Below are positions 25,198-27,500 of a stretch of DNA of 32,000 nucleotides, in pieces. Position numbers and translations under genes: made by a program. The stretch covers positions 1,590,001 to 1,622,000 of the forward strand of contig OY759724.1 in assembly GCA_963662715.1 (NCBI GenBank), read 5' to 3'. This stretch comes from Candidatus Omnitrophota bacterium (GTDB taxonomy: Bacteria; Omnitrophota; Gorgyraeia; Zapsychrales; JANLHA01). The notes under the pieces are model-generated. The model saw only the letters and a list, made by a program, of their open reading frames with translations, made no database searches and was not told the origin of the DNA. Each line of letters opens with the position of its first letter. Position 1 is the first letter of the stretch.

Positions 25198-26226
25198 ATG
25201 AAAATAGGTTTTACATATGATTTGAGATCAGACTGGATCTCGGCAGAACGAGATCCTTCTGATGCCAACGCAGAATTTGATAAGCCGGAGACCATTGAAA
25301 CGATTAGTCAGGCTCTCGCGTCCTGGGGGCATGAAGTCTGCCATATCGGGAACCTGGCGGGTCTCTTAGATCAACTGGATACGTTGGATGTGGACATCGT
25401 TTTTAATATTTGCGAAGGGCTGAGCGGGCGTAACCGGGAGTCTCAGGTCCCGGTTCTTCTTGAGGCAAGGAACATCCCTTATATAGGTTCCGACGGTTTG
25501 ACGATGGCCTTGACGTTAGACAAGATAATGGCCAAAAAATGTTTTAGAGCCGATGGCATCCCCACGCCGCGTTTTTTTGTCGCCCGGGATTCTTCTTCCC
25601 TGAAATCCCGATGCCCCTTGGATTTTCCTTTGATCGTTAAGGCCTCTGCCGAAGGGACGTCTAAAGGCTTAACAGAAGCCTCCCGTGTGGAGGATATGCC
25701 GGCTTTAATACGGCAGGTTGATCATATAACCCGGACCTACCGGCAGCCGGCACTGATTGAGGAATTTATTGCGGGTCAGGAATTCACGGTGGCTGTGATC
25801 GGGAATGATCCCCCGCAGGCCATGCCGGTCGTGCAGATCAGTATTGATCAGCGGGAAGATCTGGGAGATAGATTTTTCACCTATGAAATGGTCGTTAATG
25901 AAGATATCGTGACATATGTTTGTCCTGCCCGTATTTCAACCGAACTGAAACAGACCCTTCAGGAATGGGCCGTGCGGACCTATACCTCGGTCGGGTGTTT
26001 GGATTTCGGCCGCGTCGATTTTCGGGTGGATCGGGAAGGACAGCCTTATGTGCTGGAAATTAATCCCCTGCCGGCGTTGGGGAAGAATGATATTTTTAAC
26101 ATTTTCCCGTTTACCATGGGGCTCACATATCAGGATATTATACAATGTATTCTTGAACATGGTCTTAAACGTTACGGCATGATCGATCAGCTGGCGGATA
26201 AGTTTCAGGCTGCTTTAATTCCCTGA
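25198..26226 (+). CDS. D-Ala-D-Ala-ligase-family ATP-grasp ligase (non-canonical N-terminus; substrate unknown)
   Basis: AAGGAAGGAAAG lies upstream. ATP-grasp blocks are DKIMAKK, FPLIVKASAEGTSKG, LIEEFIAGQEFTV and FGRVDFRVD....YVLEINPLPAL. The N-terminus MKIGFTYDLRSDW lacks the GGxSxEHxVS motif of genuine Ddl. Confidence 0.8.
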   Translation: MKIGFTYDLRSDWISAERDPSDANAEFDKPETIETISQALASWGHEVCHIGNLAGLLDQLDTLDVDIVFNICEGLSGRNRESQVPVLLEARNIPYIGSDGLTMALTLDKIMAKKCFRADGIPTPRFFVARDSSSLKSRCPLDFPLIVKASAEGTSKGLTEASRVEDMPALIRQVDHITRTYRQPALIEEFIAGQEFTVAVIGNDPPQAMPVVQISIDQREDLGDRFFTYEMVVNEDIVTYVCPARISTELKQTLQEWAVRTYTSVGCLDFGRVDFRVDREGQPYVLEINPLPALGKNDIFNIFPFTMGLTYQDIIQCILEHGLKRYGMIDQLADKFQAALIP

Positions 26227-26312
26227 TGTCCCCGAAAGCGTGTGTCCTGCCTTTGAAAGACAGGGGGAGAGGGGAATCCCTTGTGGATCACGGATAGTAA
26301 ATCAGAAAAATT

Positions 26313-27500
26313 ATGACGACAAGCCCGGTTATCAAAAATATCAGCGAAAAGAAATTCTCCCCTTCTCAGGGAGAAGACTCTTCCTATGAATATGAATTAT
26401 GGATTAAAGAAGCTTTCCCGGAGATCACGGAGCAGGAATGGGAAGACTGGGGCTGGCAAATGCAGCATCGTTTTCGGACCCGGGAGGCCTTGTCGGAATT
26501 CATTCCTTTAACCCAGGAAGAAAAAGACGGTATAGAGCATTGCGGGCAGAAGCTCACAATGGCGATACCTCCGTATTTTGCCAGTTTGATAGACCCTCAG
26601 GATCCGCAGTGTCCGATACGCCGCCAGTGTGTCCCGACGAGCCGGGAGCTTGTCACGGCCCCGGAGGAAATGAGGGATCCCTGCGGGGAGGAGAAACATT
26701 CTCCCGCAAGAGGGCTGGTGCACCGCTATCCTGACCGGGTCTTGTTCCTCGTGAGCGATCATTGCCCGATGTACTGCCGCCACTGTACCCGTTCCCGTAT
26801 TTTAGGAGAAACAAAACAGCTCTTCAACTCTTCGACCTATGAAGAAGCTCTGCATTATATCCGGGAACATGAAGAGGTGCGTGACGTTCTGATTTCCGGG
26901 GGCGATCCTTTGTTGCTCAGCGACCACCTGCTGGAATACCTGCTCCAGAGTCTCAGGGCGATTCCTCATGTCGAGTTTTTAAGGGTTGGGACCAGGGTCC
27001 CCGTGACCTTGCCTCAGAGAATCACGCCGGCTTTTGTCGATATGTTGAAGAAATATCACCCGCTGTGGCTGAGTATTCATTGCAATCATCCCAAAGAAAT
27101 AACTCCCCGGGTGAAAGAGGCCTGTTGTTTGCTGGCGGACAGCGGCATCCCGGTCGGAAGTCAAACCGTGCTTTTAAAAGGCATCAATGATGATGCGGGC
27201 ATTATCAAGTCATTAATGCATGAACTTCTTAAAATCCGGGTACGGCCTTATTATATTTACCAATGCGATCCCATAACCGGCTCCCGGCACTTTCGCGCTT
27301 CCATTGAAACAGGACTGCGTATTATGAATCAATTGCGCGGATACACGAGCGGGTATGCTGTCCCGACTTATGTCCTTGACGCCCCGGGCGGAGGAGGAAA
27401 GATACCTTTAAATCCGGATTATATATTGAAAAAAGAGAACGGAAAATATATTTTCAGAAATTACGCCGGAGAAATTTATTTTTACCAGGATAACCCCTGA
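26313..27500 (+). CDS. KamA-family radical-SAM/PLP aminomutase (lysine 2,3-aminomutase-like, short form)
   Basis: CPMYCRHCTRS (CxxxCxxC), SGGDPLL, YIYQCD and LDAPGGGGKIP (PLP Lys) are present. The protein ends shortly after the GGGGK block. Confidence 0.85.
   Translation: MTTSPVIKNISEKKFSPSQGEDSSYEYELWIKEAFPEITEQEWEDWGWQMQHRFRTREALSEFIPLTQEEKDGIEHCGQKLTMAIPPYFASLIDPQDPQCPIRRQCVPTSRELVTAPEEMRDPCGEEKHSPARGLVHRYPDRVLFLVSDHCPMYCRHCTRSRILGETKQLFNSSTYEEALHYIREHEEVRDVLISGGDPLLLSDHLLEYLLQSLRAIPHVEFLRVGTRVPVTLPQRITPAFVDMLKKYHPLWLSIHCNHPKEITPRVKEACCLLADSGIPVGSQTVLLKGINDDAGIIKSLMHELLKIRVRPYYIYQCDPITGSRHFRASIETGLRIMNQLRGYTSGYAVPTYVLDAPGGGGKIPLNPDYILKKENGKYIFRNYAGEIYFYQDNP

Follow-up and report, generated by a model that had tools for sequence, protein, structure and literature searches.

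A Ddl-like ATP-grasp ligase and a short lysine 2,3-aminomutase in Omnitrophota: the minimal form of a widespread, often fused enzyme pair

Beta-lysine has three known fates, namely acetylation to an osmolyte in methanogens, modification of EF-P, and lysine fermentation or use in antibiotic side chains. In the first of these, the AblA and AblB enzymes of methanogens and some bacteria (kamA-yodP in Bacillus) make N-epsilon-acetyl-beta-lysine, while in the second the KamA-family enzyme EpmB feeds beta-lysine to EpmA, a paralogue of lysyl-tRNA synthetase. Here we analyse a 32,000-nucleotide (nt) stretch of the genome of a Candidatus Omnitrophota bacterium (GenBank assembly GCA_963662715.1, contig OY759724.1, positions 1,590,001 to 1,622,000 of the forward strand; hereafter the window), in which the gene for an ATP-grasp ligase resembling D-alanine--D-alanine ligase (Ddl) is followed by that for a short KamA-type lysine 2,3-aminomutase. 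The host assembly is a single 3.36-Mb contig and is 95% complete. The window pair is the minimal form of a widespread, often fused and undescribed enzyme pair, and we consider it likely that its two genes form one functional unit, in which beta-lysine would be made and then ligated in an ATP-dependent manner into a small amide or peptide.

The pair resembles AblA/AblB in that a KamA-type gene adjoins the gene for a putative beta-lysine-consuming enzyme, and in its patchy spread over anaerobic bacteria and archaea; the AblA-type lysine 2,3-aminomutase is also the top-scoring NCBIfam model for the aminomutase (497 bits). It differs in that the partner is an ATP-grasp ligase and not a GNAT acetyltransferase, and in that the aminomutase is without the C-terminal zinc-binding tail and scores below the AblA cut-off. 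AblB (TIGR03827) gave no match in the host genome. With EpmB/EpmA the pair shares a short, tail-less KamA-family enzyme that would supply beta-lysine to an ATP-dependent ligating enzyme, although here this enzyme is of the ATP-grasp type rather than a lysyl-tRNA synthetase paralogue, and its target is probably not EF-P. The EpmB model scores 243 bits against a cut-off of 369, and EpmA was not found genome-wide, the top GenX match (234 bits, cut-off 287) falling in a frame of 512 amino acids (aa) that we read as a probable full-length lysyl-tRNA synthetase. The possibility that the aminomutase is an EpmB with epmA located elsewhere thus loses its footing, the enzyme scoring far nearer to the lysine 2,3-aminomutase and AblA models.

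From the Ddl and Van ligases, with which it has in common the fold, the C-terminal domain and the residues for ATP/Mg and acyl-phosphate binding, the window ligase is separated by low identity (18-26%), by scores short of the curated cut-offs, by the missing Dala_Dala_lig_N match, by rebuilt substrate-site residues and by a gene position outside the dcw cluster. Further parallels are the aspartate racemase and D-aspartate ligase (Aslfm) of Enterococcus faecium and L-amino-acid ligases such as BacD/YwfE, where an unusual amino acid is made by one enzyme and ligated by an ATP-grasp enzyme encoded beside it. These represent other ATP-grasp subfamilies with other substrates, and the sequence link to them is a weak PDB match of the window ligase to an L-amino-acid ligase (E-value 9e-6). 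Cyanophycin synthetase and the oligo-beta-lysine of streptothricin offer a likeness in the ATP-dependent, non-ribosomal joining of basic amino acids; the streptothricin chains are made by enzymes of the nonribosomal peptide synthetase type, and the Mur-ligase-like domain of cyanophycin synthetase has no counterpart here. By this analogy a polymeric product, an oligo-beta-lysine, is an idea that may be entertained. A full-text literature search agreed with the original prediction in finding no described two-gene module that fits, a 2009 survey of ATP-grasp amidoligases by Iyer and colleagues lying outside that search.

Both genes were found at the positions first given for them, on the same strand and separated by 86 nt (26227-26312):
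25198..26226, + strand: Ddl-like ATP-grasp ligase gene, 342 aa (open reading frame (ORF) listing, Pfam/NCBIfam and AlphaFold model), belonging to the 'AGa' clade of the KamA-partner ligase family
26313..27500, + strand: short KamA-type lysine 2,3-aminomutase gene, 395 aa, with the radical S-adenosylmethionine (SAM) motif CxxxCxxC, the pyridoxal phosphate (PLP) lysine and the lysine-binding Asp pair, and with the zinc site gone

Conservation of the two genes together had been set as a test of the pairing, and it proved extensive at each level of sampling. In an even set of 201 Omnitrophota genomes the ligase query matched 64 and the aminomutase query 66, such that about a third of sampled Omnitrophota carry the pair. 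Of the 65 other genomes with an aminomutase homologue, 61 proved on comparison of coordinates to have a ligase homologue no more than 500 bp away and in the same orientation, while the four unlinked exceptions are more distant aminomutases in other contexts. Two gene orders occur. The window belongs to the class with ligase, optional second ligase and aminomutase, and more distant Omnitrophota families have the aminomutase followed by the ligase. A scan of species-representative genomes gave 540 ligase relatives, of which the best 80 loci, all from the Omnitrophota AGa clade, were inspected: the aminomutase lies directly 3' in all 70 with enough contig (40 two-gene and 30 three-gene forms), and the remaining 10 end at a contig edge.

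Gene fusion provides strong evidence of a shared pathway. In one sampled genome a single protein of 731 aa encodes both domains (L019:5913-8108, - strand), and a search with this protein returned about 92 fusion proteins (P0122-P0223), 81 with KamA and 11 with the ligase as the N-terminal domain. Their source names, from which the taxonomic breadth is taken, include Omnitrophota, Candidatus Magnetoovum, Eubacteriales, Methanocellales, Woesearchaeota, Thermoplasmatota and Nanoarchaeota. The occurrence of both orders in unrelated lineages argues strongly that one domain works on what the other produces. It is extremely improbable, then, that the two are chance neighbours, the ligase being a spare Ddl/Van-type enzyme and the aminomutase feeding lysine fermentation or an acetylated osmolyte. 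Names in the public records do annotate both genes in this way, but adjacency in two gene orders and the 92 fusions contradict it, as do scores below cut-off for all Ddl/Van models and the lack of a genomic match to AblB or to BKACE (kce). A search for lysine 5,6-aminomutase (PF09043) gave no match in the genome, but none in the control genomes either, and is thus uninformative.

Two observations concern other contexts in the same phylum sample. Two of the unlinked exceptions were checked (L024:557-3384 and L025:5182-8033); in both, a KamA homologue of 44-47% identity lies between an alanine dehydrogenase/PNT-like gene and the gene of a 276-aa protein of no known family, which is a different, also undescribed aminomutase context. 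In a distant Omnitrophota clade, a TldD/PmbA peptidase pair stands directly 5' of the aminomutase-ligase pair in three different families (L016, L021 and L023).

The aminomutase, the only KamA-family gene that a profile search revealed in the host genome, has in its translation every motif claimed for it (CPMYCRHCTRS, SGGDPLL, YQCD and LDAPGGGGK, with the C-terminal end YFYQDNP), and it passes the NCBIfam cut-off for the KamA family (TIGR00238, 357 bits, cut-off 199). Its only solved relative is the lysine 2,3-aminomutase of Clostridium subterminale (PDB 2A5H; 465 bits, ~55% identity, 360 residues aligned). Alignment to this structure confirms the retention of the two aspartates, Asp293 and Asp330, and Arg134, the PLP lysine Lys337 and the CxxxCxxC cluster motif are kept as well. 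We take the roles of these residues in 2A5H to be binding of the substrate carboxylate (Arg134), of the epsilon-ammonium group (Asp293/Asp330) and of PLP (Lys337). Across 31 aligned aminomutases of the module, from gene pairs and fusions, there is no variation at D356 (equivalent to D330), K363 (Lys337), R160 (Arg134) or the Cys triad, and at least 90% of the sequences retain D319 (D293). The Cys-rich C-terminal tail is indeed absent, the enzyme stopping at about residue 366 of the 416-residue 2A5H enzyme. The zinc site of the latter presumably consists of Cys268, Cys375, Cys377 and Cys380. With the three C-terminal cysteines missing and the fourth ligand, Cys268, aligning with an Asp in the window aminomutase, the whole zinc site has been lost coherently.

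These comparisons bear on the identity of the substrate. In glutamate 2,3-aminomutase, Lys and Asn presumably replace Asp293 and Asp330; an assignment to this enzyme was excluded, both aspartates being retained and the model scoring 466 bits against a cut-off of 650, which upholds the preference for lysine over glutamate expressed in the original prediction. On sequence criteria lysine is the best-supported substrate. We regard as improbable the alternative that the substrate is a different basic amino acid, such as arginine or ornithine, and that the ligase handles the corresponding beta-amino acid. The Asp pair would presumably suit a guanidinium group or a shorter amine too, and the arginine 2,3-aminomutase model does score 428 bits, yet this misses its cut-off of 600, and the top model and the one solved relative both represent lysine enzymes, no contact to lysine having been lost. 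A source of lysine is at hand, since lysA is present in the genome and lysine can therefore be made.

For the ligase, Pfam gives a match to Dala_Dala_lig_C (121 bits) and to several general ATP-grasp models, and none to Dala_Dala_lig_N (PF01820), which does match the ddl of the genome's dcw cluster. Every NCBIfam Ddl and Van model leaves it under the cut-off, the top Ddl model being NF002378 (181 bits versus 243), with TIGR01205 at 152 versus 246. The N-terminus MKIGFTYDLRSDW is present as previously quoted. The assertion that the protein is devoid of the N-terminal Ddl motif stands in part: the Gly-rich motif is gone, replaced by TYDLK ... AEFD..ET, but an invariant glutamate, E26 (in AEFD), lies within one column of Ddl Glu15. 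An AlphaFold model (predicted local distance difference test score 92.6, built on a 26-row alignment) has Ddl enzymes as all of its best structural matches (template modelling score 0.71-0.84, 18-25% identity). Compared with the genome's own Ddl and with solved Ddls, the equivalents of the ATP/Mg and acyl-phosphate residues K97, K144, E180, R255, D257, E270 and N272 are kept. The catalytic residues K109, K148, E188, R272, D274, E287 and N289 are 100% conserved in 80 ligase orthologues of different species, as are the family-specific residues E26, D28, N70, E73, R80, E81 and K156, which indicates that the ligase is under selection as an enzyme.

The substrate site differs from that of Ddl, among others at His63, Lys215, Tyr216 and Ser281 (E. 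coli DdlB numbering), which we take to be Ddl substrate and catalytic residues and in place of which the window ligase has E73, Val, Val and D298. First, the HG of Ddl becomes an invariant EG (E73), and GEDG becomes GRxRE (R80 and E81). Second, the GSSxG loop gains an invariant lysine (K156). Third, Lys215/Tyr216 are replaced by Val/Val. Lastly, an Asp is found at or beside the Ser281/Leu282 site, as D298 in the window ligase and as Ser-Asp in other members; the D298 position is D in 77 and E in three of the 80 orthologues. The added acidic residues in the substrate site suggest a cationic substrate. In a quick tree, with a weak backbone and the long-branched true Ddl drawn inside the ligase family, the window ligase falls in the well-supported Omnitrophota clade AGa, inside a broader group that contains KamA-fused ligase domains. 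The family as a whole comprises 987 clusters at 50% identity (E-value at most 1e-30). Relatives of 550-790 aa that match in two stretches are numerous (e.g. P0244-P0248), and we read these as probable tandem fusions of two Ddl-like domains.

The window ligase is not the Ddl of the host, the genome holding a better Ddl match elsewhere. This canonical ddl of 325 aa with both Ddl domains stands at ~80 kb within the dcw cluster, with a Mur ligase gene on one side and ftsQ on the other, and its product is 26% identical to the window ligase. This bears on an envelope role, in which the ligase would add beta-lysine to a side chain or cross-bridge of the peptidoglycan precursor, a parallel to the aspartate racemase and D-aspartate ligase of E. 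faecium. Such a role would agree with the closest solved relatives all being Ddl, and with an S66 LD-carboxypeptidase-like gene directly 3' of the pair at one fused locus. We nevertheless judge it quite improbable: the genuine ddl is located elsewhere, mur genes are linked at none of the loci examined, and the fused pair occurs in archaea without murein (Methanocellales, Thermoplasmatota and Woesearchaeota by source name).

Two other Ddl-like genes of the genome were considered as orthologues of the second ligase found in three-gene loci, and rejected on low identity (25-27% to the window ligase, 28-31% to the second-ligase type). One, at ~1,435,500-1,437,600 (L003:175-2112), encodes a 645-aa protein with a class I SAM methyltransferase domain fused to the Ddl-like ATP-grasp, 27% identical to the window ligase. 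The other, at ~2,141,300-2,143,400 (L004:11-2085), is a divergent Ddl-like ATP-grasp gene (339 aa) that overlaps by 4 nt with the gene of a Peptidase_Mx-like zinc peptidase (352 aa); these two may be a further ligase/peptidase pair.

The companions of the pair in other lineages speak to the kind of product. A Methanocellales contig carries a second Ddl-like ligase and a GNAT after the fusion, and on another contig the fusion is accompanied by two further ligases. At Eubacteriales-type loci an S51 peptidase of the cyanophycinase/PepE family lies 3' of the ligase-KamA fusion or is fused to it, a further likeness to the cyanophycin system, and one 944-aa fusion protein carries the S51 peptidase domain as well. 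Variants in Omnitrophota include a GNAT, an S66 LD-carboxypeptidase-like gene and a weak RimK/LysX-like third ligase. None of these companions (GNAT, extra ligase, S51/S66 peptidase) is in the window. Additional ligases, an acetyltransferase and hydrolases of small peptides are more in keeping with a small peptide-like metabolite than with a target in a protein or the cell wall. The RimK/LysX-like third ligases, seen at two Omnitrophota loci, might hint at a carrier-protein pathway, with a small acidic LysW-like protein carrying beta-lysine or lysine during processing, in the manner of LysW/LysX. Three findings make this very improbable: the two-gene form does without a third ligase, no acidic-tailed or Cys-rich small ORF is present in the window's flanks, and the Omnitrophota leaders that were examined contain no conserved small acidic ORF.

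Around the pair, the upstream flank holds era, an NAD(P)HX epimerase gene, nth and mgtE, and the downstream flank rpsU, purH, folC and mnmE (Pfam/NCBIfam and translations). As the original prediction had noted, no known beta-lysine partner adjoins the pair, whose immediate neighbours are mgtE, rpsU, purH and folC. The gene next to the aminomutase is:
27642-27794: rpsU, ribosomal protein S21, 50 aa, with a promoter-like site at 27550-27577 and a terminator at 27802-27833

This neighbour raises the possibility of protein modification, in which beta-lysine would be placed on a lysine or the C-terminus of a translation protein (the Lys in the PGKG loop of EF-P, or S21), with the ATP-grasp ligase replacing EpmA. 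The EF-P of the host has a PGKG loop while EpmA was not found, in relatives with the two-gene form rpsU mostly comes next after the aminomutase gene, and translation genes adjoin some other loci. Against this, rpsU has its own promoter-like site and is missing from the three-gene loci, and its adjacency is probably lineage synteny. The pair is also limited to the third or so of sampled Omnitrophota mentioned above, the cassette in other lineages carries a GNAT and small-peptide peptidases, and the archaeal carriers are not known to have EF-P and use aIF5A/hypusine instead. We hold modification of a translation protein to be decidedly improbable. A role of the product as a replacement for missing polyamines was also considered and found unsupported for this genome, a spermidine synthase homologue being present (197 bits).

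The 328-nt gap 5' of the ligase gene contains three elements that suggest regulation:
24930..24958, + strand: promoter-like element read from the sequence, with TTGACA, a 17-nt spacer and the extended -10-like TGGTAAGAC
25108..25128, + strand: tentative TTG micro-ORF MNVRYQ*, 26 nt ahead of the hairpin and behind a Shine-Dalgarno-like stretch rich in G (25094-25099)
25134..25168, + strand: intrinsic-terminator-like hairpin with a 15-bp stem and U6, a candidate attenuator whose end is 30 nt short of the start codon of the ligase gene

The fold of 24960-25175 has a free energy of -57 kcal/mol (z = -3.0). A hairpin with U-tract is found in 69 of 77 related loci at -8 kcal/mol or below and in 65 at -10 kcal/mol or below; its end is mostly no more than 60 nt from the ligase start (full range 6-143 nt), and the stems differ in sequence across loci while pairing is maintained. 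A promoter scan did not list the element at 24930-24958, although the layout tCTTGACA ... TGnGATAAAA recurs 5' of the ligase gene in relatives, with CTTGACA in 33 of 65 leaders versus 0.5 expected. In 43 of the 65 leaders a Shine-Dalgarno sequence and start codon (mostly TTG) stand 18-27 nt before the hairpin, versus 20 +- 3.4 in shuffles, and in 21 (versus 4.6 +- 1.9) codon 2 or 3 of the micro-ORF is Lys, several reading Met-Lys-stop; the predicted micro-ORF of the window has no Lys codon. An Rfam scan of 24700-28000 (E-value up to 5) gave chance-level sRNA matches, with no lysine riboswitch or other family. As the sole promoter-like element found is 5' of the hairpin, the pair is probably transcribed through the terminator. 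This layout suggests attenuation, which may be translation-coupled, and read-through of the hairpin would make expression of the pair conditional.

We propose the following mechanism for the pair. The aminomutase would convert free L-lysine to beta-lysine (3,6-diaminohexanoate) by [4Fe-4S]/SAM radical chemistry with PLP, a step deduced from the conserved catalytic and substrate-binding residues. The ligase, combining the Ddl fold and the Ddl ATP/Mg and acyl-phosphate residues with a rebuilt, more acidic substrate site, would then use ATP to join beta-lysine by an amide link to a second small molecule; that beta-lysine is its direct substrate we infer from the fusions in both domain orders. The product would be a small soluble beta-lysine amide or peptide, and neither the D-Ala-D-Ala of the cell wall nor a modified EF-P. 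Since nothing in the two-gene form is dedicated to supplying a second building block, our most specific guess, held with low confidence, is that beta-lysine is condensed with itself or with a common metabolite. The interpretation first put forward, in which the aminomutase supplies beta-lysine and the ligase condenses it, gains support from the separate ddl, from the co-conservation and fusions, and from an aminomutase that is not EpmB-like.

Several points weigh against this proposal. Both substrates of the ligase and its product are predictions. The AblA score of the aminomutase is below the equivalog cut-off of 525 bits, and arginine or ornithine may be its substrate instead, for which the sequence leaves room. 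In the window ligase no basic residue is present at or next to the Ddl Lys215 position (there is an M one position earlier), so that its activity must rest on other conserved residues; most relatives keep such a residue, 21 of 26 diverse members having K and 51 of 80 AGa orthologues an R at the preceding position, and we would guess that the invariant K156 stands in for Lys215. Finally, the flanking genes at the window are conserved housekeeping synteny and give no clue to the acceptor here.

A bolder version of the proposal is rather unlikely, though possible. The unit may make a new class of cationic beta-lysine amides, e.g. N-(beta-lysyl)-beta-lysine or short oligo-beta-lysines, serving as stress solutes or in a polyamine-like capacity in anaerobic bacteria and archaea, with synthesis in Omnitrophota switched by a translation-coupled attenuator whose micro-ORF is TTG-started and often Met-Lys-stop. 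For the enzyme pair itself, ATP-grasp ligation would be a fourth fate of beta-lysine. The two-gene form of the window is the simplest version for expression and assay, and the conserved leader offers a handle on the signal that turns the pathway on. Knowledge of the product would put a name to a new metabolite of uncultured, widespread anaerobes, would correct the label 'D-alanine--D-alanine ligase' on those family members that bear it, and would define a new substrate class for enzymes of the Ddl fold.

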